Source of the DNA: Bdellovibrionales bacterium
GTDB lineage: Bacteria > Bdellovibrionota > Bdellovibrionia > Bdellovibrionales > UBA1609
Direction: 5' to 3'
Length of the DNA stretch: 64,000 nucleotides
NCBI GenBank assembly: GCA_965116175.1
Contig: OZ220490.1
Location: 888,570 to 952,569 of the forward strand
The position numbers were made by a program, and so were the translations under genes. The notes under the pieces were generated by a model. The model worked only from the letters and a program-made list of their open reading frames with translations. It had not been told where the DNA came from and ran no database searches. Below, piece after piece: positions 31,327 through 46,703 of this stretch (positions are counted from its first letter, which is position 1; each line of letters starts with the position of its first letter).

Positions 31327-32061
31327 TCAATCTGATTTCAACTCAGAAACCCTCTCTACAGAAGGTTTGCTCATTCCTGATTCATGAGGATGAGTTTTAG
31401 GATCTTTTTCTTGTGAACTTGGGGATTGTTCAGCAATATCCGGTTTTGATTGATCAGACTGAGCTTTGAGATTTTCTTTTTTAAGAGAGGCTTTGGATTT
31501 TTTTGCAGCTGTATGAGGCGCTAAAATGGTGTAAAGCACCCGCTTTTCCATCTTTGCAGGCTCTTCAGAATAGGCTAAATCAGAAAGGCGCTCCTCCATC
31601 TGTTTTAAAAGTTTAAAGCCAAGCTCCTTATGGGCCATCTCCCGTCCAAAAAATCTTAAGTTGATTTTAACTTTGTTACCCTGATTTAAAAATTCTTTGG
31701 CTTTTTGAAGTTTGATTTTTATATCCCCCTCATCTGTACGGGGTCTAAACTGGATTTCCTTAATTAAAACTTTTGTTTGATTTCTTTTATTTTGTTTTTC
31801 TCTTTTTTTAGTTTCAAATCTCCACTTTCCATAATCCATAATTTTACAGACGGGAGGGTTTGACTTATCATGGACTTCCACCAAATCCAACCCCTTGCTT
31901 CTGGCCTGATTTAAAGCAGAAAGAGAGGACATAAGGCCTACAAGCTTACCCTCCTCATCAATGAGGCGGACTTCAGGAGCTCTCACCCTCTCGTTGATAC
32001 GATGCCTATCCTCCCGTTTAAAACGGCCTCTGAAATTTCTTCTTGGCTTAATGGCTGGCAC
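31327..32061 (-). CDS. infC: translation initiation factor IF-3 with a C-terminal low-complexity extension of about 65 aa
   Basis: INERVRAPEVRLIDEEGKLVG, VCKIMDYGKWRFE and the KEIQFRP..DEGD core. The track start is GTG at 32061. An in-frame ATT at 32050-32052 overlaps the thrS stop and is an alternative start. Confidence 0.9.
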   Translation of the reverse strand: MPAIKPRRNFRGRFKREDRHRINERVRAPEVRLIDEEGKLVGLMSSLSALNQARSKGLDLVEVHDKSNPPVCKIMDYGKWRFETKKREKQNKRNQTKVLIKEIQFRPRTDEGDIKIKLQKAKEFLNQGNKVKINLRFFGREMAHKELGFKLLKQMEERLSDLAYSEEPAKMEKRVLYTILAPHTAAKKSKASLKKENLKAQSDQSKPDIAEQSPSSQEKDPKTHPHESGMSKPSVERVSELKSD

Positions 32062-34060
32062 CTTTTTGATTTTTGAGAAAAAAAGATTGAAGAGATCGGG
32101 TCTTTATCTCTTCAGAAAGCTGATCTGAAAACTCCTGCAAATTCAAATCAGAAAACAATTCACCTGTTCTTAAACGAACAGATACAAGTTTTGATTGAAC
32201 TTCTTTTTTGCCGACAATTAGCATATAGGGGATTTGTTGATTTTGAGATTCTCTGATTTTATAGGAAAGTTTTTCATTTCTATTATCTATTTTGCAGACT
32301 ACGCCTTTTTTTTCAAGTGTTTTTTGAATTTCAAGCGAAAAATCTCCTTCTTTATCTGTAATTTGAAGAATTACCACCTGAACAGGACAGAGCCATGCAG
32401 GCAGCCTTCCCCTTGAATGCTCCAAATATACAGCTATAAAACGCTCCAGAGAGCCTAAGATAGCCCTATGAATTATAACGGGCCGCTCCTCCTCATCCTT
32501 TTCATTGATATAACTTAAATCAAAAGCTTTTGGCAGGTTAAAATCACATTGAAAAGTGCCTAATTGCCATGAACGGTCAAAAAAATCCTGAACACAAATA
32601 TCCAACTTAGGGCCATAAAAAGCGCCGTCTCCAGGGTTTAATTGATAGGGTATTTGCAAAGCTTCAAGAGCTTGGCTTAAAGCCTCTTCAGCCTTATCCC
32701 AAAGCCTGTTCTCCCCCATCCTATCTTCTGGCCTTGTGGAAAGCTCAATTTTATAGTTTTCAAGGCCAAAAATTTTATAAACATCTTTTAACATTTTAAT
32801 CCCTGATTGTATCTCCTCAGAGAGCTGATCCAAACGGCAAAAGATATGAGCATCATCCTGACAAAAACTTTTTACTCTTGTAAGTCCCTGCAAAGCGCCT
32901 GCAGGCTCTTTGCGGTGCAGACGACCAAAATCCGCCACCCGCCAAGGCAGATTCCTATAAGACCATCTGTCCTTTTTATAAAGAAGACAATGCCCCGGAC
33001 AGTTCATGGGTTTTAAAAACAGTTCTCTGTTTTCAGTTGACAGATCTTTCTCCTCAAAATGTTTTGTCTTTTGATTTTCTTTTTTTTCCTCATTTAAAAT
33101 GGCATACATATTTTCCGCATAATGCTCTGTGTGCCCGGATCGATCAAACAGCTCGCCATTAAACACTTGAGGGGTTACAACCTCTTCATAATCGTATTCC
33201 TTATATTTTTCTCTTAAAAAAGCCTGCATGCGGTTATAAAGCTCTGTGCCTAAAGGAGTAAAAAAAGGGCTTCCTGCAGACAACTCGCTAAACCAAAATA
33301 AATTAAGCTGTTTGCCAATTTTGCGATGATCATTTTTTTGCGCCTCTTCCTGCTTTTTTAAAAAAGCCTTAAGCTGTTTTTCTGTATGAAAAGCTGTCCC
33401 GTAAATTCTTTTTAGCTGTTTATTTTTGGAATCCCCCCGCCAATAAGCTCCTGATTGGGATAAAATTTTAACAGCGCCAATTTGCCCCAAATGCTGAACA
33501 TGGGGGCCTCTGCATAAATCAAGCCAAGGGCCTTGCTTGTAGATGCTGACTTCCCCCTCCTCGAGACTCTCTATAATTTCTTTTTTTAAAAGCTCCCCTT
33601 TTTCTTCAAAATACTTGCAGGCTTTCTCTTTGCTCCAAACCTCTTTTACCAATTCATATTTTTTGCTCAAAATAGATTTCATTTCCTGCTCAATTTGATC
33701 CAAATCTTCAGGGGTGAAACTTTTTTCTGTATCAAAATCATAGTAAAAACCGTTACCTATAACCGGGCCAATCGTGACTCTTGTTTCAGGCCAAAGGTTT
33801 TGCACAGCCTGAGCCAAAACATGAGCAGAAGAATGCCTAACCACCTCCAAAGCCTTTTCGGAGGGAATTGTGACGATTTCCACCCTGTCCCCATTCTGTA
33901 AAACAGAACGCAAGTCCCGCACTTCAGGATTTTTGTTAACTAAAGCGCCAACAGCAGATTTAGCCAGCCCCTCACCGATACTTTTTGCAAGCTCTAAAGC
34001 ATTGGGACAGAAGGAAAACTCTTTAAAGCTCCCGTCAGGAAGCTGAATACGGCAGCTCAT
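32048..34060 (-). CDS. thrS: threonyl-tRNA synthetase
   Basis: TGS domain, second additional domain (HSSAHVLAQAV), class II core (FGRLHRKEPAGALQGLTRVKSFCQDDAHIF) and anticodon-binding domain. Confidence 0.95.
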   Translation of the reverse strand: MSCRIQLPDGSFKEFSFCPNALELAKSIGEGLAKSAVGALVNKNPEVRDLRSVLQNGDRVEIVTIPSEKALEVVRHSSAHVLAQAVQNLWPETRVTIGPVIGNGFYYDFDTEKSFTPEDLDQIEQEMKSILSKKYELVKEVWSKEKACKYFEEKGELLKKEIIESLEEGEVSIYKQGPWLDLCRGPHVQHLGQIGAVKILSQSGAYWRGDSKNKQLKRIYGTAFHTEKQLKAFLKKQEEAQKNDHRKIGKQLNLFWFSELSAGSPFFTPLGTELYNRMQAFLREKYKEYDYEEVVTPQVFNGELFDRSGHTEHYAENMYAILNEEKKENQKTKHFEEKDLSTENRELFLKPMNCPGHCLLYKKDRWSYRNLPWRVADFGRLHRKEPAGALQGLTRVKSFCQDDAHIFCRLDQLSEEIQSGIKMLKDVYKIFGLENYKIELSTRPEDRMGENRLWDKAEEALSQALEALQIPYQLNPGDGAFYGPKLDICVQDFFDRSWQLGTFQCDFNLPKAFDLSYINEKDEEERPVIIHRAILGSLERFIAVYLEHSRGRLPAWLCPVQVVILQITDKEGDFSLEIQKTLEKKGVVCKIDNRNEKLSYKIRESQNQQIPYMLIVGKKEVQSKLVSVRLRTGELFSDLNLQEFSDQLSEEIKTRSLQSFFLKNQKGASH

Positions 34061-34676: not shown

Positions 34677-35849
34677 TTAACTTTTACCAAGCAAAAACTG
34701 TGCTCCTAATTGTTTTGAGGGAATTTGTTTTTCAATAGGCAGATAAATACAGCTTTGTATATCCATTTGCTTAAGGTATTTGCACATTAAAGGACCAACA
34801 TCTTTCCAATCCAAGCCTCCTAAACCGCAGCCTAATGAAGGGAGGGCTATAGACTCTATGCCTAGCTCCTTATAATTATCCAATAACCACTTAAGCCCTT
34901 TTTCAATTCCATCTATAGGAGAGTTTGTCTTCCAATGATTTTTTGTGGCAAACAGCAAAAACCAGCGGTTTCCATTTTCTGTAACAGTGAATTGAGTGTC
35001 TTCCAAAAGAGTCCTTATAAAATTTTCTTCTCTTTTATAAAGAAAAGGCAAACCCATTTTTAATTTTCTCTGACGGCATATATCCTGATATTTTACATAC
35101 ACATCAGGAAATTGATATTTTGCTCTTGAGGCCAAACCCTTTCCCATAACTCCGACTGTGTTTACACTTATTGTAAATGTATGCATCTTTGAAAAAAACA
35201 TATCTCCTTTTGTCAAAGTGATTTTATTTGAAATAGGGGTTTGATATTCAGGCAAAAAGAACATATTTCTGTCCGGCATGATATTTAAAGGGCCTGCAAC
35301 CTCTTTTCTAATTTGGTTGGCAATTTCTTCAGTTGCTGTGTAAATCCCAATGATTTTTTCTCTTGGTATATGATCATAAACCAATAACTCGGCCATGAAT
35401 TTCCTTTTATCAGATTCATTCCAATAGTCTTTTTTAAATTGTTCCGAATCCAAAGCCTTTAAACCCGTATTTATATCATCAAAAAATTGTGTGATAGATA
35501 CAGCAGCATTGCCATCAGTTACCCCAACATTACTGCTATTGATAACATCTGAATTGATTTGCAATACTATGATATTCTCTGTCCCAAATTTTTTAATAAC
35601 TCGATAGAGCATAGGGTTTCTGACATGAAAATACAGATTAGCATAATCCCATAAAGAACAGCCTTTAAATGTTTTATTTTTTCTTATTTTGATAATGTCT
35701 TCAGCATGAATGGATTTTACCCCCCTGCCTGTAAGTTTAGCCCATATATTTTTTTTATTAAGCCTATTACGGGATAATATGCCATTTTTTAAAATAGACT
35801 TTAAATTGTCTCTATGGGTTATATAATAAAAATATCTTGGTATTTGCAT
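34677..35849 (-). CDS. DarT (DUF4433) DNA ADP-ribosyltransferase fused to a DarG-type macrodomain
   Basis: The N-half has YYITHRDNLKSILKNGILS, LWDYANLYFHVRNPMLYRV, TDGNAA and KFMAELLVYDHIPREKIIGI, which are DarT blocks including the AE(L/F)LV Glu. The C-half has SVNTVGVMGKGLA, LFATKNHWKTNS and ALPSLGCGLGGLDW, which are DarG macrodomain blocks. Confidence 0.8.
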   Translation of the reverse strand: MQIPRYFYYITHRDNLKSILKNGILSRNRLNKKNIWAKLTGRGVKSIHAEDIIKIRKNKTFKGCSLWDYANLYFHVRNPMLYRVIKKFGTENIIVLQINSDVINSSNVGVTDGNAAVSITQFFDDINTGLKALDSEQFKKDYWNESDKRKFMAELLVYDHIPREKIIGIYTATEEIANQIRKEVAGPLNIMPDRNMFFLPEYQTPISNKITLTKGDMFFSKMHTFTISVNTVGVMGKGLASRAKYQFPDVYVKYQDICRQRKLKMGLPFLYKREENFIRTLLEDTQFTVTENGNRWFLLFATKNHWKTNSPIDGIEKGLKWLLDNYKELGIESIALPSLGCGLGGLDWKDVGPLMCKYLKQMDIQSCIYLPIEKQIPSKQLGAQFLLGKS

Positions 35850-35872
35850 AAAATAATTAACTCCTTTTAAAG
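35770..35872. repeat. 103-bp direct repeat, copy 1 (5' end and leader of the DarT-macro gene)
   Basis: By my reading it is identical to 36848..36950: CGGGATAATATGCCATTTTTTAAAATAGAC...GGTATTTGCATAAAATAATTAACTCCTTTTAAAG. Confidence 0.85.
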
Positions 35873-36109
35873 CTTTAAAACTTGAGGCATCTAAAATTAA
35901 TGGCCATCCTTTTTATATCCTTTGCTTCTTAAAGCGTCTTCACGACTAAAATAAGCTTGTTTCTCAGCTCCTATATAAACCCCTAATTCATAAATTACTG
36001 TATCACAATTACACTGATATTCTATATAATAGCCATTTTCTATTTCTTCAATAGAACATTTACATATTTCACATCTTATAAAACATTCACAATAAAATAT
36101 CTTCTTTCG

Positions 36110-36927: not shown

Positions 36928-36950
36928 AAAATAATTAACTCCTTTTAAAG
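36848..36950. repeat. 103-bp direct repeat, copy 2 (includes the stop codon of the cysteine desulfurase gene)
   Basis: Same sequence as 35770..35872. The TAA stop at 36945-36947 lies inside the repeat. Confidence 0.85.
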
Positions 36951-38204
36951 TCTTACAACAGATTCAGTAGACTGATAATTTATAGAGTAAAACTCTTTTA
37001 AAGAGTTTACTAAAAAATCCACTTCCTGTTTTGTGTTTGAAGGGGATAAAGATATACGAATACATGATCTGGCATAATCTTTTGGATTACCCAAATCGTC
37101 AAGATCGGCTATAGCAGTAAGAACATGGGAAGGTTCAAGCGATCCGGCATTACAAGCTGAACCTGCAGAAGCACACATACCTTTTTGGGCAAGATGCAGT
37201 AAAACAGCTTGATTGCTAATACCACCACAATAAATACTAGATGTATTTGACAAACGGTTGGCTTTCCTACAATTAATTTTGAAAGGACCTAGTGGTCCAT
37301 ATATTTTTATTTTTTGAAAATCTTCTGAATTTAGATTTGATAAACTTTCTTTAAATGGATTTAGCAAACTGTCCTCAAAATAATCTCTTAATTGTTTTAC
37401 ATATTCCTGTTTACTTAAATCAATATCCTCCACAGCTAACTTAAAAGATTGAATAGCAGGGTAATTATGGGTTCCCGGTCTTAAACCTCTTTCCTGTCCC
37501 CCACCATACATAAGAGGAGCAAATGGTTTTCTAGCATACAATAAGCCAATTCCTTTCATAGCTCCAATTTTATGGCCAGAAAAGCTTGCAAAATCCACAT
37601 CCCATTTTTCTAAATCAACAGGCACTTTTCCTAAAGATTGAACAGCGTCCACATGAACAAGGCAATGGTATTTTCTAGCAATTTCAATTATATATTGTAT
37701 ATCTGTAATGACTCCTGTTTCATTATTAGCGCTTAAAAACGATATAAGAGAGTGAGGACGCTTTGAGCAGGTTTCTTCTAATTTATCTAAACATAATTCC
37801 CCTTGTTTGGTATGGGATATTAAATGCCAAACTCGGTCGTTTTGTCTGTTATCCAAAATAGGATGGATATTTGAATAGTCCGACAAAAATCCAATCCTTT
37901 TGAGGCTGGCTTGATGCTCTAACATAGAACTGATAACAGCAAGTAATTGATTCAACCTCAAAGTCTCTGGCGATAAAATAGTGTTAATGGATTCTGTCCC
38001 TCCACTTGTAAAAAATAAATGTTTTGGAGAGCAGTTTAAACACTCTGAAATAACTTTGCGGCACTCTTTAATTTTTTGAGCTAATACTTGAGAATGTGAA
38101 TATACAGAAGAAGGATTATGCCAATCCTCTAAAATACCCTTTTCAAGATATTTTCTCACAGACGGAGAGTAAGGGGCTGTAGAATTATAGTCAAAGTAAA
38201 TCAT
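36945..38204 (-). CDS. sspA: cysteine desulfurase (class V aminotransferase; SspA/DndA-like)
   Basis: FTSGGTESIN, HVDAVQSLGKVPVD, SFSGHKIGAMKGIGLLY (PLP Lys) and SAGSACNAGSLEPSHVL (active-site Cys). It is the last gene of the operon, 4 nt after the upstream stop. Confidence 0.75.
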   Translation of the reverse strand: MIYFDYNSTAPYSPSVRKYLEKGILEDWHNPSSVYSHSQVLAQKIKECRKVISECLNCSPKHLFFTSGGTESINTILSPETLRLNQLLAVISSMLEHQASLKRIGFLSDYSNIHPILDNRQNDRVWHLISHTKQGELCLDKLEETCSKRPHSLISFLSANNETGVITDIQYIIEIARKYHCLVHVDAVQSLGKVPVDLEKWDVDFASFSGHKIGAMKGIGLLYARKPFAPLMYGGGQERGLRPGTHNYPAIQSFKLAVEDIDLSKQEYVKQLRDYFEDSLLNPFKESLSNLNSEDFQKIKIYGPLGPFKINCRKANRLSNTSSIYCGGISNQAVLLHLAQKGMCASAGSACNAGSLEPSHVLTAIADLDDLGNPKDYARSCIRISLSPSNTKQEVDFLVNSLKEFYSINYQSTESVVRL

Positions 38205-38207
38205 TCT

Positions 38208-40250
38208 TTACCACTTTTCGTTTAATTTTTTTAAATAACTTTTAATTTTTTCTTCAAATAGCTTAAATCTACTTTCTAAAAACTGTGATTTGATTATTTT
38301 ATCTTCAGTATTAAACTCTTCTTTTCTGTAATTCAGTTGTGTATCAATACATAGTACCTCCATACCGCTTTTTTCTATTTCTTCATCAATAGAATTAGTT
38401 AACCGTTTTTGATTTCTTTCGCTAGGAGAGTAAAATTTATTTAATATACTATGAACTGGACTGTTTTTTTTATCAGGATTTATCCAACTATCTGGAATAA
38501 TATGATCTTTATGTAAATCCTTAAAGTGTTTTATCTTTATGGTTTTTTCTTCGCCATGTTTAAATATATCAATAGCCTTTTTATATGAGTAAGATAATAT
38601 AAACTGTAAAAAATATTCTCCAATATTGTTATTATAACTATAGCCATTATCTTCATAAAAAGCTTTAAATCCCTCTAAGTCTGAATACCCTCTTTTATTA
38701 CACAGGTCATCTTCATATTTCTTAAATTGATTATCCTGTGATTTTTTTATGAATTTGATTAAATGATTTAGATGTTCTATTGAGAAAGCATTTTGCCCTT
38801 TTTCATATTTTCCAGAAAATAAACTCATCCAGTATGAATATTCTATTTTTTCTTTCGCCTCTATTTTTTCTTTATTTTTATATAAATTATAAGCTATGGG
38901 TAAAACTGTTAATTTATATTTTATATCTTTTATAGAAGGAACACCACATTTTTTAATTAGGAATTGAAAAGCTAATATAAGAGATTCTACAGCCTTCTCG
39001 GAACTATCTTCTATTTGTGTAGCCTCTATTTTTAGTAGAGATTTTTGCTTGATACAATCTACTTTAAACTCATTGCCGTCAGATTCTTTTATGAAGAGGG
39101 CTAACATATTCAAATACATATCAGAAAAATTTTTTGTAATTAAGTTTTTACTATCTTTCACAAATTTTTCTTCAATCAATTCTGCTACAGACTCGTCTTC
39201 TTCAGATTCACCTTCTAAATTTCTTATAAATGATTCTGCATAATCAAGAAGTGCTTTAGAAAGCCGCCCCATCTGTAGCTTGGAATACTTTGCGGATACA
39301 ATATCAAATACTCCAAGAGAGATGCCTCCTGTGTTCATTGTATTAAAAGCAACAATAGCTTTATTTAGTTGTGATTTTTCATATTCAACTCCATAAATTT
39401 CTTTGTAAATGATATGATTATTAAAGAATTGTAATATGTTAGTCTTTATTTTGTTGATTGTTTCTGATTTCTTCTCTTTATTTTCTATTATTACTCCATG
39501 ATCTTTTTTTATATTATTAATATGTTTTTGAACAGTACTGTTGTTTTTATTTTTTATAAGAAAATCTATATATTGTTCAGAGATTTTTTCTATTATAGGT
39601 GTTAGGTTTGAAAGATCTGACAAAATAAGAAATAAAGGCAAAAGATTTTCCTCCGTACAATAGTTTTTAATCTTTTCCATTTCTTGAGAAGGATGCCATC
39701 TGTCACCTTCATTTGTTTTCAGAACTTTTTTATTTATTATCACAGATTCAATATCTTCTATGTCGTAATCTTCAAATTTTCCAGTCCAATAAAAATCATA
39801 TAGTAAATTTAGTTTCTGTTGTAAATCGTTATTATTCTCAGCTAAAGATAAGTTTAAAAACCACCTATACCTTAAGTTATTATGTAGAGAATTATTTGTC
39901 TCTTTCCAATTATTATTTATATATAAATTATTAAAAATAGATTTTATAGTAGATATTCTTTGTTGTCCGTCCATAAGTAATTTAGAACGCTCTGGGTTTA
40001 ATCCATTTCTTTGTTCTTTATAACATAATTCACGAAGACCTATATTATCTAATTTATCTAAGACTAATATGCTCCCGATAGGAATATCTAAAAACAGAGA
40101 ACAAGCCAGTTTTGACTGCTGATCTTGAGGCTTCCACACAAAATCTCTTTGAAAGTCCGGTAGCAATAGATTCTCCTCAAGAATTAAATCTCTTATTTTG
40201 TGTCTGTATTCCTTAGCTTTCATATCTCTTCCTATTGTTATAAATCGCAA
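38208..40250 (-). CDS. sspE: DUF262 (ParB-like, DGQQR) + DUF1524 (HNH-like) protein; SspE/GmrSD-type PT-sensing or type IV restriction component
   Basis: The N-terminus has LLPDFQRDFVW...IGSILV...LMDGQQRISTI. The C-terminus has HKDHIIPDSW...NKFYSPSERNQKRLTNS (His-Me finger). Its start overlaps the SspD-like stop by 13 nt. Confidence 0.7.
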   Translation of the reverse strand: MRFITIGRDMKAKEYRHKIRDLILEENLLLPDFQRDFVWKPQDQQSKLACSLFLDIPIGSILVLDKLDNIGLRELCYKEQRNGLNPERSKLLMDGQQRISTIKSIFNNLYINNNWKETNNSLHNNLRYRWFLNLSLAENNNDLQQKLNLLYDFYWTGKFEDYDIEDIESVIINKKVLKTNEGDRWHPSQEMEKIKNYCTEENLLPLFLILSDLSNLTPIIEKISEQYIDFLIKNKNNSTVQKHINNIKKDHGVIIENKEKKSETINKIKTNILQFFNNHIIYKEIYGVEYEKSQLNKAIVAFNTMNTGGISLGVFDIVSAKYSKLQMGRLSKALLDYAESFIRNLEGESEEDESVAELIEEKFVKDSKNLITKNFSDMYLNMLALFIKESDGNEFKVDCIKQKSLLKIEATQIEDSSEKAVESLILAFQFLIKKCGVPSIKDIKYKLTVLPIAYNLYKNKEKIEAKEKIEYSYWMSLFSGKYEKGQNAFSIEHLNHLIKFIKKSQDNQFKKYEDDLCNKRGYSDLEGFKAFYEDNGYSYNNNIGEYFLQFILSYSYKKAIDIFKHGEEKTIKIKHFKDLHKDHIIPDSWINPDKKNSPVHSILNKFYSPSERNQKRLTNSIDEEIEKSGMEVLCIDTQLNYRKEEFNTEDKIIKSQFLESRFKLFEEKIKSYLKKLNEKW

Positions 40251-41056
40251 ATTAGGCAGGCATCTTCTTGGTCGTCATCATTGACTACATCTTTAAAAAC
40301 ATCTGTTATGTTTTTTCCTTTTTGTTTTGATAAGGCTTTTTCCATTCTTTGTTTATAATCTTGTTTTATTTTTTCTCTATTTTTTTCTACATCTTCCAAA
40401 GGCATTCCTTCCACCCAAGTAAAAGCAACATGATCCCCTTTGTAATTTTGTTTTTCATATTGTTTTGCTTTTTCAAACAGTTCTGGGTGTTTTTCCAAAA
40501 GTCCAACCCACTCAATTTTTCTTTGGAAGAAGCAAAAGTAACAACCAGATCGGGCCCGCCAATCATAATATTTTGGTAAGCCAATGCCTGATTCTTCCAG
40601 AATTTTATTAACTCCGTCAAGGTCGATTCCTTCTTCTTTAAAAGGATAGCGGGGCAGTATTGTATTTTTCTGTGAAATATAACCCTGTCGGTGCTCGTCA
40701 GCTCTAATACCAATATAACTTTCTATTAAGTCCTGTCTAATATACCTCTCAAAAGATTTAATTTTCATTTCCATAGTACACCACCTAGCCCTTGGAGAAG
40801 GTAAATAGTCCGAATGCTGTTTTAATAAATAATCAAAGTTTTTCTCACTATTTAAACGAACAATTTTTTTACTTAAAAAAGCTTCTAATTTATCTAGGTA
40901 TTCATAAGTTTCTGGCAATTCACTTCCCGTATCACAAAAAACATATTCTAAGTTAGGTATTTTATCTTTAAGAAAAATAGCCATAGCCGTGGAATCTTTG
41001 CCGCCAGATAGAGGACAGACCTGCCTTCTTTTTTTGTCATATTTAAAGCTAGGCAT
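40238..41056 (-). CDS. sspD: PAPS-reductase-family PP-loop ATP pyrophosphatase (SspD/DndC-like)
   Basis: CPLSGGKDSTAM (SGGxDS PP-loop), a RARWCT motif, SGCYFCFF and a C-terminal CLIC. The preferred start MPSFKYDKK at 41056 forms ATGCCTAG with the upstream stop. The track start is 41125. Confidence 0.78.
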   Translation of the reverse strand: MPSFKYDKKRRQVCPLSGGKDSTAMAIFLKDKIPNLEYVFCDTGSELPETYEYLDKLEAFLSKKIVRLNSEKNFDYLLKQHSDYLPSPRARWCTMEMKIKSFERYIRQDLIESYIGIRADEHRQGYISQKNTILPRYPFKEEGIDLDGVNKILEESGIGLPKYYDWRARSGCYFCFFQRKIEWVGLLEKHPELFEKAKQYEKQNYKGDHVAFTWVEGMPLEDVEKNREKIKQDYKQRMEKALSKQKGKNITDVFKDVVNDDDQEDACLICDL

Positions 41057-44000
41057 TGATTTCCGTATCCCCAACATATACATCCGCAGGTTCTTCTGTT
41101 TGTTCTTTAGAAGTCTTTTCATCAACGGATTTCAAAATGGCCAAAATGACTTTTCTTTTATCTATTTCATCAAAAGAATCCAAAATGAGCTTTATTTTTT
41201 CTATAGAAGAAGAAAGATGTTTATTAGTATCAAAATGAGTTCCTAATTTCACAAAAGTTTTTTTGTTTTTTCCCTTATCAATAAAAGCTAATACAGATTG
41301 TCCTTTAAAATTAGGATTAGCTATCTCACAAGCCAGTTCAATTTCTGTTTTGACTCTTTTTAAAGCAAACTCAAACTTAAAGTATCCTTTTTTATCCCAA
41401 TACCTTGGAGAAGAACCAGTCAATACATCAGCAATTGTTTCTAAAAAATACTGGTTATAATTAGAAGGATCAAAATTTAACACCCGTCCTATAAAGCGAC
41501 TGGTGTTAGAGCTGAATGGATAATCTTTAACTTGTGAAAGAGTATCCTTAAAACTTTCAATAAGTTTATTTTTTGTTATGGGTTTAAGAGTATTATTTAA
41601 GCATTGTTTATCTATAAATTTAATGAAAGTTATGAGATCAGATTTGATTTTTAAGAGCAGGTTTTTATAGACTTCATCAATCTCTTGTTTTATATCATTC
41701 AGTTTAAGTAATATATCTTCTATTTCATTAGTACTAGTTTTAGAATGAATACTTTGTTTATTAAAACAGTCTGATATTCTGTTAAAAAGGAGTTTATCAG
41801 GCTCTTTAGAGGAATCAATTTGAATAAGAAGTTTTCGCCCCCTCTGTGACAATACTGAAGATAGTTTTGTAGATTCCGGGATGCTTTTTCTCCACTTAAT
41901 TAGAGCTTCTATAACTGAACGAATAGATACATCTTTGGCTTTAAAAGTTTCAGCTAAGCCATTTAAAAAATTTTGTTGTTTAGTATTTATTGGAGTGTAA
42001 TGAATAATTGTTTTTTTAGGGTATTTCATCAAAAGATCATAATGATCTCCATCTAAATCCTTAACATAAGCTTCATCAAAATAATGACTGACAGGCTGTT
42101 TGAAACACAAATCAGCTAAAGCAATAAAAACAGGAATCACACCAAGACGAAAGCCATAAGGAGGAGAAACCAGTATATCTAAAAGTGTATTTCCATAAAT
42201 GCCTTGAGGATGTTCAGACAAAATTTGCTCGTATTCTTTAAAAAATTTATAATAAGCTGATAATTTGGAAATTTGGTAAATGTTTATTTCAGAAGAATAC
42301 TTAAATTTAGAAAGCCTGAACATAGTATCAAAAATCACATAGTCTGGCCCATGACCCTCTATACAGCTGATTATATTTTTTATAGGTTTATTTCTGTTTT
42401 GTTTTAAAAGGTTAATAAATTTTTTACGCCCTAAAGTAATGCTTCCCGAAACACTGTGGCGGTTCATATACTCTAAATTAAATTTTATATATTTATTATA
42501 TTCTTTTTCAAAGAGATTGCCTAAATACCTTTGCAGTTCTTTAAAATGAGAAACTTTTTTTAATGACACCTCTTTGCCTTTTATAAAATCAAGCATAGGG
42601 TAAACAACATAAGCTGAAAGATTCATATAGCCAATAAAAGGTTTTAACAGAGAATTTATAGAAAAAAGCAAAATTTCTTTATGGCGATCCAGTTCTTTTT
42701 TTACTAAAGGGCTGGCTAATAAAATTTCCCTGTTATTGTATAAACAATCAACAGCGTTTAGTTCCTCAATATCTTTTCTACACTCTATAAACTGTGTAGG
42801 TAGAATAAAGACAGTGAGTGGAGATGATATTTTTTGAATTTCTGATTTTGCATAAACAAATTCATCATGACTGAAAGGAATTACATAAAAAACACAACCG
42901 TCCTCTCTATAAAAATCAACATTTTGTTGTGTTCTAAGGTTTTTTAACTCCTCAACAGAAATAATTTTTGTTCCGTAAAAACGATTTATAGCATTATCAA
43001 AATTATATTTTTTAGGAATAATAAAATCTGTCTTAAAATATCTTCTTAAAACTTGAACAAGGCTTTTACTGGTTAATGTTGTGTCTTTTAATTTGGAAAT
43101 TTCCTCATCAATATCAATAGGGGCACCTTCCTGCAAAAGATACTGTTTTATATTTTTATTATAAAAAATAATTTTTTTATCTTTTAAAAACTTTAAGGAT
43201 TTTTTAATATCCCCTCTTGAAAATAATTGGTTAAAACAATCTACAATAAAATCTTCTGTTAGAGGCGAAAAATGAGTGTCTTTAACAACAGAGCAAAGGG
43301 CTATAAGGCTTATAATTTGTTTTGAAGCTTCATCTTTTTTTTCAATTTTTTTAAAGGCTTCCTCCGCCATAAGCTGAACCTTATAAGCACCTCCAATGCC
43401 AATATCTTTTCCAATAAGAATTTTAAAATATTGATATAAATTATAAGGCAGCAGCAAAGTGGTTTGATCTTTAAATCTTTCATCTAAAAATCTTTTAAGA
43501 GAGTGATTTTCATTACGGGTTAAAAAAGTGTAAAGGGTTCTTTCATTTTGAGCCACTTTTTTTGATAAATGAGGGAGAAGGGCTAAAACAACAGGATGCA
43601 AAGGAAAGCAGTTAAGTAAAATTGGTTCTATATTTTTTAAATCAATAAAATCTTCAAAAGTGTCTGTTTGCCATTCTGACACATATTTTTTAATGTAGGT
43701 TTTATATTTCTTAGCCATAGAAATTTGACTTTTTAAAATATTTTTTTCAAAAACAGCAGAAATCATTTTGTAATAATCAGCGCTTTTATCGTAAAAAGCG
43801 GATTCTTGAAAACGACCTTCAATTTTTGCCCATTCCTGTTGGACATTGATAGGAAGCTGGCTGGCATATTGAGAAATAGACAAATGAGTGATAAGCATTA
43901 AATGACACTGTTTTTCTCCTGAGCGATTGCAAAACTCCGCAAAGTTTTGTAAAAATTGAATGTTTAAATCTGTTGGATTGTGCACTCCTTTTTCTAAATA

Positions 44001-44585
44001 TTTTCCAAATTCATCATAAATGACAAAGATTCCACCATAGCCTTTTGCTTTTAAACTATTCAAAGAATCCTTGTAAAATTGCAAAGCTTTTTTTGATTGA
44101 CTTTTAGCAGGGATTCCTACTTGTGACAAAGATTCTTTAAGCTTGTTTTTAAAGATTTGTTCAATCTCTCCTTCATACCCATTAATGAATACAGGCAATA
44201 GCTTTGTTTGTCCTGATTTTTGAAATGAGTTAAAACTTGCTTTTAAATTTTTATTTGCTTTATTGATTAAAACATTGATGATTTTAGAATATTTTTTTGC
44301 AATGATTTGAGCCGTTAACAAAGCAAAAGTAGATTTGCCAAGCCCTGGAGAACCGCTTAGGACTCTTACTCTATGTTTTGAGTTTTTTTCTAAAATGGAA
44401 TTAAAAATTTCTTTTAACCCCTCTTGAAATTTAGAGGAAAGATAAATATTTTTTAATCTTGAAATATCTTTATAATCCAGTTCTAAATTTGTAGATCTGT
44501 TATAGCTATCAGATAACTGAATAAGATTTTGTATTGAAAAACTTTTTTTCTTTTTTACTGATTGATTTTTTATATTGTGTTTCAT
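41049..44585 (-). CDS. sspC: large P-loop NTPase (SspC-like; DUF499/BrxC-like ATPase architecture)
   Basis: Walker A is LSGSPGLGKST (near residue 80) and Walker B is GGIFVIYDEFGKY. The long helical remainder (1178 aa) is unrecognised. The call rests mainly on its position between the DUF4007 and PAPS-reductase genes. Confidence 0.6.
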   Translation of the reverse strand: MKHNIKNQSVKKKKSFSIQNLIQLSDSYNRSTNLELDYKDISRLKNIYLSSKFQEGLKEIFNSILEKNSKHRVRVLSGSPGLGKSTFALLTAQIIAKKYSKIINVLINKANKNLKASFNSFQKSGQTKLLPVFINGYEGEIEQIFKNKLKESLSQVGIPAKSQSKKALQFYKDSLNSLKAKGYGGIFVIYDEFGKYLEKGVHNPTDLNIQFLQNFAEFCNRSGEKQCHLMLITHLSISQYASQLPINVQQEWAKIEGRFQESAFYDKSADYYKMISAVFEKNILKSQISMAKKYKTYIKKYVSEWQTDTFEDFIDLKNIEPILLNCFPLHPVVLALLPHLSKKVAQNERTLYTFLTRNENHSLKRFLDERFKDQTTLLLPYNLYQYFKILIGKDIGIGGAYKVQLMAEEAFKKIEKKDEASKQIISLIALCSVVKDTHFSPLTEDFIVDCFNQLFSRGDIKKSLKFLKDKKIIFYNKNIKQYLLQEGAPIDIDEEISKLKDTTLTSKSLVQVLRRYFKTDFIIPKKYNFDNAINRFYGTKIISVEELKNLRTQQNVDFYREDGCVFYVIPFSHDEFVYAKSEIQKISSPLTVFILPTQFIECRKDIEELNAVDCLYNNREILLASPLVKKELDRHKEILLFSINSLLKPFIGYMNLSAYVVYPMLDFIKGKEVSLKKVSHFKELQRYLGNLFEKEYNKYIKFNLEYMNRHSVSGSITLGRKKFINLLKQNRNKPIKNIISCIEGHGPDYVIFDTMFRLSKFKYSSEINIYQISKLSAYYKFFKEYEQILSEHPQGIYGNTLLDILVSPPYGFRLGVIPVFIALADLCFKQPVSHYFDEAYVKDLDGDHYDLLMKYPKKTIIHYTPINTKQQNFLNGLAETFKAKDVSIRSVIEALIKWRKSIPESTKLSSVLSQRGRKLLIQIDSSKEPDKLLFNRISDCFNKQSIHSKTSTNEIEDILLKLNDIKQEIDEVYKNLLLKIKSDLITFIKFIDKQCLNNTLKPITKNKLIESFKDTLSQVKDYPFSSNTSRFIGRVLNFDPSNYNQYFLETIADVLTGSSPRYWDKKGYFKFEFALKRVKTEIELACEIANPNFKGQSVLAFIDKGKNKKTFVKLGTHFDTNKHLSSSIEKIKLILDSFDEIDKRKVILAILKSVDEKTSKEQTEEPADVYVGDTEINA

Positions 44586-44640
44586 TTTGTTTCTCTATTG
44601 AGTTAAATAACAAGCAACATTCATAGTAAAACATAAATGT

Positions 44641-45531
44641 TTAAACAGAATTAGCGTGAACGCCCATCTCTTTATAGTAATTATCTAAAGCTTTTTTCAA
44701 ATAAGCTGAATCAGGCTGGACAATAAAGTATCCTCCTGTTCTTGAATAATTCAGATAATTTATTTTTGAACAATTCTCTATTAGATCGTTCATTTTCTCT
44801 AAAGAAAAATGAAAAATACGGCCCGGAGAGTTTTTCTTAAGCGATAAATCCTCAAGATTAACAGATTCTGGACAACTCAGATGATTTTGCCAGAATAAGA
44901 AAAGAATATAAGCAAAAACATGGATGTTAAAATCATTGATATTTAGTTTGTTTCTAATAAACTTTTCCCCTCTTTTTTCAATCCAGCCATATTTTGTAAA
45001 GGGGGAGGGAGTTTCTGTTTCAGGATTTCTTTTTCCTGCCCATTCCACAGCCTGATACATTCTTAAAAGACAATTTAAGTCTTTGTATAAAGTTGCATCT
45101 TTTATTTTTTTGCCTGTTTTAATTTGAATATAAGCAAAAAAAGCATTTTCAAGAGATTCCTTTTCAAATTCATCAGCAGAAAAATAGTTAAAAAACCAAT
45201 ACCATGTTGTTGCTTCCTCTTTGTTTGTTACAAGCAGGTAATGAATTAAAAAAAGTGTTCCATCTAATTCAAAGTAAGGGTCTTTTTCTAAAATTTTTCT
45301 GGCTGTATCTGTAAGGGTAAAACCTACTGGATGGGATTTGATAAGATTTGCCGCCTTAAGCCAGTATCTTATAGAGTCCACCATATTTTTGCCGACCCCC
45401 ATTTTCTGCATGGCCATTTCAGTATTTTTTTTGTTATTTAAGAGAATCTGAGAGGTTTGATTTGTCCAGTAAATTCCTTTGTAAAGCCATTGATCCCTTA
45501 AATGAAAGCTTTGATGTCCGCCGAATTTCAT
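44641..45531 (-). CDS. sspB: DUF4007 family protein (SspB-like nickase component)
   Basis: The N-terminus FGGHQSFHLRDQWLYKG matches the DUF4007 opening motif as I recall it (F.GHE.F.LR.GWL.K). It is the first gene of the operon. Confidence 0.65.
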   Translation of the reverse strand: MKFGGHQSFHLRDQWLYKGIYWTNQTSQILLNNKKNTEMAMQKMGVGKNMVDSIRYWLKAANLIKSHPVGFTLTDTARKILEKDPYFELDGTLFLIHYLLVTNKEEATTWYWFFNYFSADEFEKESLENAFFAYIQIKTGKKIKDATLYKDLNCLLRMYQAVEWAGKRNPETETPSPFTKYGWIEKRGEKFIRNKLNINDFNIHVFAYILFLFWQNHLSCPESVNLEDLSLKKNSPGRIFHFSLEKMNDLIENCSKINYLNYSRTGGYFIVQPDSAYLKKALDNYYKEMGVHANSV

Positions 45532-45544
45532 TATGCCTCAATCC

Positions 45545-45575
45545 TTTTGGGAAAAGCCTAACCTAATTCCCAAAA
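45545..45575. promoter_or_regulatory. 9-bp perfect inverted repeat in the sspB leader
   Basis: TTTTGGGAA-N13-TTCCCAAAA ends 14 nt upstream of the sspB ATG, directly 5' of the GAGG Shine-Dalgarno on the minus-strand mRNA. Confidence 0.3.
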
Positions 45576-45767
45576 AGAGACAATCTTTATTATTTTCTAA
45601 ATTGCTTAAAATATATGCTTTAGCAAAAAAAACAGGACTCTAGGGCAAGTTTTTTGAAATGAAAATTTCTTAATTTTTAAAGTTTTTGTCCTGATTTTTA
45701 AATCTGTCAAATAACAATCTTACAAAAGTAAATTTCTACTGTAAAATTGACACTTTGTCTTAAATTA

Positions 45768-45895
45768 GGTTCATGACAACTTAAGCCTGATTTTATAGGT
45801 TTTAAGTTTTTGAAATGAATGGGAAAAACAAGTATTTTATCCGCTCCCGCCTTTCTGAGAAGAAATTTAGGGAGATTATCAAGTTACTCTACGAA
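45768..45895 (+). mobile_element. IS1595-family remnant: terminal repeat plus the first about 26 transposase codons
   Basis: GGTTCATGACAACTTAAG is at 45768. MNGKNKYFIRSRLSEKKFREIIKL matches the N-terminus of the 57.8-kb copy (MKNKYFIRSRISEAKFREIIKL), and similarity is then lost. Confidence 0.7.
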
Positions 45896-45911
45896 AATAA
45901 AAAACTTAAAA

Positions 45912-46703
45912 TCACTCCAAAGCTCTTTTCGCTTTCAATTTTGTCATCCCAGGTCTTATTCTATTATCGTATAGGATTTGAATCACTTCTTCATCAATAT
46001 CTGCAAATCTTGTAGGTGAGGATTCTTGGTGAAAAATACTATCAGGATAAGAGTAGGAATCTTTTGCAATTCCTAAAGATTGTGTTATTTCCTCCCTTAA
46101 AACACTTTTCCTTTCTTCCCCTTTCAATTTTTGATCAATAAAAACCATAGCTTTATAAATAACATAATCACTATCTTTAAATGGCATAAATAAACCAACA
46201 GGGACAGGTTTAGGTATAAAACGGTATATTAGGGGAAAATCTCTTTTAATTTTGTCAGGATCAACAAAATAAATTTTTAAATTAGGTCTTGAATCGTTAA
46301 TTTCTATATTTAAACCTGTTAAATCAGAAAGTTCCTCTGCAATTTTTTCAACCTCTCTTTTGTCTTCAGAGTTATACCCTTCATACAATTTGATTCGTAC
46401 ATCCCCTTGCCATTTCTGAACATTAAAGCCTGAGAGCCAACTTAAATACTCTGATCCAAAGGCTATCTCCATAAAATAATCAATAGCTTCATCGGAATAT
46501 CTTTTTCTGGAATGAGATTGGCCTTTTCTTTCATAGTTTTTATAACCTCTATAATAAGGATCTTCATATTCATAATTACAGTCAGGATCTTTAGAATACT
46601 CACAACCTTGAGGGGGAAAATCAGGATAACAGCCATTTATTCCCACAAAACAACAAAGCAAAAAAACGAGTTGGAAAAATCTAATACAAAAAATGTTTTT
46701 CAT
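45912..46703 (-). CDS. lipoprotein, unknown function (possibly DUF2927-like)
   Basis: Lipobox GINGC. LREEITQSLGIAKDS is reminiscent of DUF2927, but this is weak. Confidence 0.4.
   Translation of the reverse strand: MKNIFCIRFFQLVFLLCCFVGINGCYPDFPPQGCEYSKDPDCNYEYEDPYYRGYKNYERKGQSHSRKRYSDEAIDYFMEIAFGSEYLSWLSGFNVQKWQGDVRIKLYEGYNSEDKREVEKIAEELSDLTGLNIEINDSRPNLKIYFVDPDKIKRDFPLIYRFIPKPVPVGLFMPFKDSDYVIYKAMVFIDQKLKGEERKSVLREEITQSLGIAKDSYSYPDSIFHQESSPTRFADIDEEVIQILYDNRIRPGMTKLKAKRALE

Follow-up and report, generated by a model that had tools for sequence, protein, structure and literature searches.

A Bdellovibrionales bacterium (GenBank assembly GCA_965116175.1) encodes, within a 64,000-nucleotide stretch of contig OZ220490.1 (positions 888,570 to 952,569, forward strand; hereafter the window), a 390-amino-acid protein in which a DarT toxin and a DarG-type macrodomain antitoxin are joined in one polypeptide. 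DarT mono-ADP-ribosylates a base in single-stranded DNA (ssDNA), the macrodomain of DarG reverses this modification, and the C-terminal part of DarG adds inhibition by binding (PMC5179494). We present evidence that the window protein is a single-chain DarTG of the type crystallised from Thermosipho africanus as Protein Data Bank (PDB) entry 7OMU. An earlier reading made from the sequence alone (the sequence-only reading) had recognised both halves and implied that their fusion was novel. The novelty fails on that reading's own terms, as the architecture is already common and structurally characterised, with 7OMU on the one hand and at least 535 species-level genomes on the other. The one-gene form of DarTG was already known, and the window gene is an ordinary member of a common subtype with a solved structure.

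The gene, at 34677..35849 on the minus strand, is an uninterrupted, full-length open reading frame (ORF) that retains all key residues. Pfam DarT (PF14487, DUF4433) matches residues 8-197 (E 9.6e-41; 140.2 bits against a cut-off of 22.5; model positions 1-200 of 201), and Pfam Macro (PF01661) matches the C-terminal half (E 2.5e-9; 37.6 bits against a cut-off of 22). The PADLOC models of DarT and DarG both recognise the 390-residue protein, at E 6.9e-40 and E 3.8e-46, the DarG match covering only model positions 2-149 of 329. The NCBIfam DarG model (NF048014) is likewise covered only at positions 1-154 of 338, with 144.2 bits against an equivalog cut-off of 250, and NCBIfam DarT (NF048013) gives 104.4 bits against an equivalog cut-off of 150. 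The motifs quoted in the sequence-only reading, namely YITHRDNLKSIL, DYANLYFHVRNPMLY, TDGNA, MAELLV, NTVGVMGKG, FATKNHW and LPSLGCGLGGLDW, are all present in the translation. Because the PADLOC and NCBIfam DarG matches are partial, the C-terminal, DarT-binding domain of canonical DarG is absent, and a tblastn search of the window with 18 canonical DarG C-termini found no separate copy of it (best E 0.056). The ORF, the Pfam and PADLOC matches and the 7OMU match thus confirm the single DarT-macrodomain polypeptide; the assignment of each half is upheld by the profile searches and by the structural comparison that follows, and the loss of the DarT-binding domain by the partial coverage and the tblastn search.

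The best PDB sequence match in a phmmer search was 7omu_A (406 residues), in which residues 24-404 are colinear with residues 5-387 of the window protein (E 1.2e-106) at an overall identity of 47% (37% for the DarT half, 57% for the macrodomain half). This entry, titled "Thermosipho africanus DarTG in complex with ADP-ribose" and released on 2021-06-23, presumably belongs to Schuller et al. 2021 (Nature 596:597). An AlphaFold2 model of the 390-residue protein, built from 17 homologues (mean predicted local distance difference test score, pLDDT, 83; predicted template modelling score, pTM, 0.83), retrieved 7OMU first in a Foldseek search of the PDB, with template modelling (TM) scores of 0.86/0.89 across 390 columns, so that the relative placement of the two domains agrees with that in the crystal. 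Later matches were the DarT proteins of Mycobacterium tuberculosis and Thermus sp. 2.9, the DarG macrodomains of Thermus aquaticus and M. tuberculosis, Escherichia coli C7 DarT1, and human TARG1. The window protein and 7OMU share the order of DarT, MFFLP linker and DarG-type macrodomain in one polypeptide, and both are without the DarG C-terminal domain. They differ in lineage and in setting, since the window gene lies behind an Ssp-type phosphorothioation operon, a context specific to this genome. The crystallised chain has Ala at the position of Glu154, and because all 132 natural homologues carry Glu there, this residue is an engineered inactivating mutation.

Conservation was scored in an alignment of 132 full-length homologues. 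Phe197-Phe198 of the segment that joins the two domains is invariant in all of them, and the AlphaFold model places beta-strands in this linker at residues 189-192 and 202-205 (pLDDT ~87-93). The conserved phenylalanine pair and the predicted order of the linker suggest that the DarT and macro domains are rigidly coupled rather than held by a floppy tether, and a linker so conserved and structured argues somewhat against simple proteolytic separation. The best 120 matches from a search space of 5.8 billion clustered proteins all have both Pfam domains, with lengths of 383-430 residues except for three of 323-350. The fusion is genuine, neither a frameshift nor an assembly join. A darT-darG pair merged by frameshift, or a pseudogene decaying in a scarred locus, could appeal to the 112-nt duplication, the 50-codon DarT remnant, the startless small ORF and the truncated AAA_14 gene found nearby; more than 130 independent homologues of the same length with the linker conserved, the crystal structure of a fused member, and the full-length ORF with its key residues leave such an artefact a negligible chance. 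The same-length homologues, linker and crystal structure also count against a stop or frameshift splitting the ORF, an outcome for which the sequence-only reading had allowed. The exact sequence of the window protein has no record in public assemblies. An internal start that would yield a free macrodomain was judged unlikely: the sequence AAAGGAG stands only 2 nt before the ATG of Met217 and consists of codons for a conserved Lys-Gly-Asp, and a product begun at Met217 would be without the first beta-strand.

Both active sites had been described as apparently intact, and the residue alignments and the conservation among the 132 homologues bear this out. Glu154 of the DarT half is aligned with the Ala engineered into 7OMU and into Thermus DarT chains, with E160 of T. 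aquaticus (Taq) DarT and with E152 of DarT1; the Taq E160A mutant is non-toxic (PMC5179494). Four residues are essential in both DarT1 and DarT2, a Glu, an Arg acting in proton abstraction, a Met that stabilises the intermediate, and a base-coordinating Asn or His (PMC11543638). Their counterparts in the window protein are E154 (132/132), R56 (131/132), M80 (127/132) and N114 (130/132), the last three aligning with R52, M71 and N104 of DarT1, of which N104 corresponds to H119 of DarT2.

The subtype of the DarT half bears on its target. A profile of the DarT halves of the fused family scored 82 bits against Thermus DarT (DarT2), 54 bits, in two pieces, against E. coli C7 DarT1, and 46 bits against M. 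tuberculosis DarT. The base-coordinating residue of the window protein is Asn114; its counterparts are His119 in Thermus DarT2 and Asn104 in DarT1. This Asn was considered as a signature of guanine-specific DarT1 and rejected, since the thymidine-specific M. tuberculosis DarT shares SDGNAA (TDGNAA in the window protein). DarTG1, the guanosine-specific DarT1-NADAR system, resembles the window protein in having a DarT-family transferase with a base-coordinating Asn, but its antitoxin is a NADAR domain rather than a macrodomain, and the guanine-contacting segment M-F-Y-K-Y of DarT1 reads M-L-Y-R-V in the window protein. By analogy, thymidine is most likely the target base, because the DarT2 enzymes that are partnered by macrodomains modify thymidine.

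The macrodomain half matched the DarG macrodomain structures 5M31 and 5M3I at E ~1e-21 and TARG1 at ~1e-6. Its residues N230, K237, K303, H305, W306 and G342 align with N22, K29, K80, H82, W83 and G119 of Taq DarG; K303 (132/132), N230 and G342 are invariant among the homologues, and K237, H305 and W306 nearly so. All six Taq residues have been mutated, with K80A, N22A, K29E and G119E markedly lowering activity, and the isolated DarG macrodomain is sufficient as an antitoxin (PMC5179494). The canonical two-gene DarTG2 systems of T. aquaticus, Thermus sp. 2.9, M. tuberculosis and enteropathogenic E. coli therefore share with the window protein the DarT fold and its essential residues, and a DarG macrodomain with the catalytic Lys and the ADP-ribose-binding loops. 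They differ in having two separate genes and a DarG whose helical C-terminal domain binds and inhibits DarT; relative to Taq DarG, the window macrodomain also has an insertion of ~15 residues (~274-295). The pattern of conservation suggests that both active sites are under selection. We considered whether the macrodomain is the functional part, acting on the ADP-ribosylation of a phage or competitor, with DarT attenuated or merely directing the protein to DNA. The macrodomain half is indeed the more conserved (mean column conservation 0.77 against 0.60) and the closer to 7OMU, and stand-alone DarG-like macrodomains occur on ~150 viral contigs; an invariant catalytic Glu and near-invariant R56, M80 and N114 would be unexpected in a degenerate DarT domain, and we regard this explanation as highly improbable.

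Relatives of the fused protein are widespread. A scan of one genome per species found them encoded in at least 535 genomes, and the best 80 of these loci all cover about residues 5-388. Among these 80 the closest are Bdellovibrionales metagenome-assembled genomes (MAGs), at 61-73% identity; the other bacterial labels include Chloroflexota/Anaerolineae, Acidobacteriota, Planctomycetota, Latescibacterota, KSB1, Ignavibacteria/Bacteroidota, Elusimicrobiota, Poribacteria, Cyanobacteria, Aquificaceae, WOR-3, Desulfobacteraceae and Alphaproteobacteria, and the archaeal labels include Nitrosopumilus and Halobacteria. Two copies occur in a single Nitrosopumilus MAG, one on contig CATOSM010000005 (locus L058) and the other on contig CATOSM010000001 (locus L066). 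In a library clustered at 50% identity, 73 clusters fell below E 1e-30, of which roughly 25-30 are full-length fusions. A phage origin of the fused gene was rejected, as a full-length homologue is present in only 3 of 2.9 million viral contigs (L086, L104 and L144). The stand-alone macrodomains of the ~150 viral contigs (IMG/VR; L087-L165) are 31-41% identical to residues ~210-371 and lack a DarT half, in keeping with the 'antitoxin mimic' type of counter-defence that has been published for phages.

The genomic context of the fused gene was compared across 85 related loci, which were searched by tblastn with the SspA-D and DUF262 proteins of the window. A conserved linkage to Ssp was rejected, since Ssp genes lie near the fused gene in only one of these loci (L001), where sspB and sspC are 7 kb downstream in an order unlike that of the window. 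Clustering of neighbouring ORFs (at least 70 residues within 4 kb, and small ORFs of 35-160 residues within 0.9 kb) revealed no conserved partner gene, large or small, with no neighbour family present in more than 6 of about 85 loci. Associations with restriction-modification (R-M) genes do recur. In two Bdellovibrionales loci (L004, 7416-13514; L007, 7431-13706) hsdR flanks the fused gene on one side and an hsdM/S-like gene on the other, each separated from it by 9-50 nt. In related Bdellovibrionales MAGs (L008 and L009) the fused gene is the last of a type I R-M operon, and six Chloroflexota-type loci have an Eco57I-like methyltransferase gene directly beside it. Two-gene DarTG systems have likewise been reported to lie inside type I R-M operons (Jankevicius et al., PMC5179494). 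Among the closest relatives (73-77% identity) the neighbourhoods are unrelated, and they abound in transposases and in abortive-infection (Abi) and toxin-antitoxin genes, along with an integrase. The fused gene acts as a mobile module, complete in a single gene, that settles in defence islands.

These neighbourhoods bear on two further explanations. The fused protein might be coupled to the adjacent DNA-modification system, Ssp in the window and type I R-M in relatives, as an effector or back-up that senses unmodified DNA or as an element that stabilises the operon. Such coupling would fit the gene's place between hsdR and hsdM and the six loci in which Eco57I-like methyltransferases adjoin it, the ribosome-binding site and start codon that directly follow the sspA stop in a duplicated copy of the gene's 5' end, and the crosstalk with type I R-M systems that has been raised as a possibility (PMC5179494). 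The single Ssp-associated locus of 85, the lack of any neighbour family in more than 6 of 80 loci, and the fact that post-segregational stabilisation needs an antitoxin less stable than its toxin, which a fusion does not provide, make coupling very unlikely. Alternatively, the protein might be a housekeeping or regulatory writer-eraser that puts a reversible ADP-ribose mark on ssDNA of the host cell itself (at replication origins or forks, for instance) and so slows growth or controls replication under stress. Growth control and persistence have been discussed as DarTG roles (PMC5179494, PMC7050489), a fusion locked at 1:1 is well suited to a mark that is buffered and reversible, and in many of the 85 loci the neighbours are ordinary metabolic or ribosomal genes. 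Against a housekeeping role stand the patchy, apparently horizontal distribution over many phyla and two archaeal lineages, the change of neighbours even at 73-77% identity, the repeated proximity of R-M, Ssp, Abi and toxin-antitoxin genes, transposases and an integrase, and the sharing of a single low-GC island with the Ssp operon; we consider it unlikely.

The reading we prefer, to which we assign a probability of roughly 0.6, is that the window protein is an active single-chain DarTG and serves in a toxin-antitoxin or phage-defence role. For this protein we infer the enzymatic activities, the target base, the defence role and the trigger alike. The DarT domain would mono-ADP-ribosylate a base in ssDNA at the expense of nicotinamide adenine dinucleotide (NAD+), and the macrodomain would remove the adduct through Lys303, the eraser being tethered 1:1 to the writer without a DarT-binding domain. 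The fixed 1:1 stoichiometry and the missing DarT-binding domain imply that, unless the protein is cleaved, control would not come from antitoxin lability or stoichiometric sequestration. It would instead lie in the balance of the two activities or in a conformational gate between the domains. The cis regulation suggested in the sequence-only reading, with autoinhibition relieved by a phage cue or by proteolysis, is a reasonable possibility. In an unstressed cell the eraser would hold net modification of the chromosome low; upon phage infection the balance would tip, and replicating DNA would be ADP-ribosylated and blocked. Candidate triggers are a surge in ssDNA substrate, a phage factor that targets the macrodomain or the interface, and a change in NAD+. 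CapRel is a known fused toxin-antitoxin defence protein that carries a toxin and its neutralising module in one polypeptide. The window protein resembles CapRel (alluded to in PMC11481870) in concept, in that a direct or conformational route to activation must take the place of antitoxin decay; the two share neither fold nor chemistry, and the neutralising module of the window protein would be an enzyme that reverses the product of the toxin. Even for two-gene DarTG systems the activation trigger is stated to be unknown (PMC11481870).

Several points weigh against this reading. A 1:1 writer-eraser would not obviously achieve net modification. Thymidine is a tentative assignment for the target base, Asn114 standing in the place of His119 of Thermus DarT2, and by the equivalog scores the fused protein is the equivalog of neither canonical DarT nor canonical DarG. 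Many related loci lie among housekeeping genes and not among obvious defence genes. Finally, no activity, toxicity or phage assay of any fused member was found in the searchable literature; the open full-text literature yielded no mention of the fused form, and what was found describes only two-gene DarTG systems in phage defence. The one-gene form may be missed by two-gene detection rules, since a single gene matches both the DarT and the DarG models. It is possible, though doubtful, that fused DarT-macro proteins are a widespread one-gene class of immune or abortive-infection systems in at least 500 bacterial and archaeal species, switched by activity balance or an inter-domain gate, with ssDNA supply or a phage factor that disables the eraser as possible triggers.

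The features of the locus are collected in Table 1. An Ssp-type phosphorothioation operon (36945..45531, minus strand) lies upstream of the fused gene on the same strand, and the PADLOC Ssp models did not match the fused protein. The sequence-only reading had put the fused gene at the 3' end of this operon; it does lie in the Ssp defence island, but not directly behind sspA. The 680-residue DUF262 protein occupies the place expected for an SspE-like restriction component. It showed no match to PADLOC SspE, to DUF1524/HNH or to solved SspE structures, and its only PDB match was a weak one to the DUF262 entry 7P9K (E 0.0035); it may be a divergent phosphorothioation-sensing effector. Guanine-plus-cytosine (GC) content is 0.27-0.31 at 38001-46000, with its minimum over the ssp genes, compared with about 0.33-0.42 on either side. 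This low-GC stretch with the Ssp operon and the fused gene is consistent with a horizontally acquired defence island. No tRNA gene was found in the window. The truncated AAA_14 gene is probably a gene fragment at the island border, as full-length relatives are far longer (for example, 1728 residues with a DUF4143 domain in L081). Insertion of the island into this gene was considered and rejected, no matching remnant being seen at the other border.

The ~1.08 kb that separates sspA from the fused gene contains a RelE-like/HTH gene pair and a duplicated segment of 112 nt. The two copies form a direct repeat with 97% identity and a spacing of 1078 nt, and share an uninterrupted identical core that runs from CTTTAAAAGGAG to TATCCCG. 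The repeat covers the region of the sspA stop together with the ribosome-binding site and codons 1-27 of the fused gene. Relatives (L001, L083 and L085) have similar sequence upstream of their gene. The copy at sspA opens a DarT remnant ORF, in which Pfam DarT matches residues 8-32 and tblastn gives 93% identity over 30 residues. Because ribosome-binding site and start codon directly follow the sspA stop in this copy, the fused gene was once translationally adjacent to sspA. The RelE-like and HTH_3 genes overlap by 11 nt, toxin first, and the pair had no counterpart in the fetched related loci that were searched (L001-L165). A Cys-rich ORF remnant without a start codon precedes the intact gene; it is related to ORFs of 61-62 residues in L082 and L084 and to a frameshifted copy in L083 (tblastn 68-74%, blastn 81-82% identity). 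This small ORF carries CxxC...CxC motifs and matches no Pfam family; it stands ahead of the fused gene in the closest clade alone, in L082-L084 and, as a remnant, in the window. The locus bears a recent rearrangement scar. Among its possible origins are the Campbell-type integration of a small circle that had the 112 nt in common with the locus, and a partial duplication that accompanied the entry of the toxin-antitoxin pair. An assembly error may also lie behind the duplication and insertion.

Table 1. Coordinates of the fused gene, its domains and the surrounding features (window numbering unless a related locus is named)
Feature	Position	Strand	Remarks
Fused darT-macro (single-chain DarTG) gene	34677..35849	-	390 aa, ATG start, intact single ORF
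DarT ADP-ribosyltransferase domain, residues 8-197	35259..35828	-	Pfam PF14487
Catalytic Glu154 codon, GAG	35388-35390	-	aligned with Taq E160
Inter-domain segment, residues 186-209, MFFLP	35223..35294	-	homologue alignment and model
DarG/TARG1-type macrodomain, residues 210-375	34725..35222	-	PADLOC DarG, PDB matches
Catalytic Lys303 codon, AAA	34941-34943	-	aligned with Taq DarG K80
sspB	44641-45531	-	PADLOC SspB E 1e-63
sspC	41049-44585	-	PADLOC SspC E 1.5e-130
sspD	40238-41125	-	PADLOC SspD E 1e-107
DUF262/GmrSD_N protein, 680 aa, between sspD and sspA	38208-40250	-	Pfam GmrSD_N
sspA	36945-38204	-	PADLOC SspA E 1.8e-84
112-nt repeat, copy abutting sspA stop codon	36848..36959	-	repeat family D1
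DarT remnant ORF, 50 codons	36775..36927	-	first 27 codons match fused gene exactly, then 23 unrelated codons and stop
Promoter-like site ahead of RelE-like gene	36715-36687	-	
RelE/YafQ-like toxin gene, 91 aa	36405..36680	-	NCBIfam RelE_StbE 35.3 bits, cut-off 27.9; Pfam YafQ, HigB weak
HTH_3 (XRE-type) antitoxin gene, 101 aa	36110..36415	-	Pfam HTH_3 E 7e-10
Cys-rich ORF remnant, 70-codon frame	35900..36109	-	no ATG/GTG/TTG start, first codons lost
112-nt repeat, copy at intact gene	35770..35881	-	native upstream spacer, ribosome-binding site, codons 1-27
Truncated AAA_14 ATPase gene, 146 aa	34214-34654	+	converges on fused-gene 3' end; PADLOC candidate system PDC-S01
thrS, one island border	32048-34060		DUF2927 gene at other side
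Small Cys-rich ORF before fused gene in closest relatives	L082 7759-7944; L084 8735-8923; L083 8776-8959		L083 copy frameshifted

The gene should be annotated as a single-chain DarTG of the 7OMU type, neither a novel fusion nor a component of the Ssp system, and the window member adds no feature beyond its crystallised homologue. The residual interest lies in how a covalently linked writer and eraser are switched on. The very build of the fused family rules out the 'labile antitoxin' explanation, which makes the family a clean system in which to test activity-based or conformational triggering.

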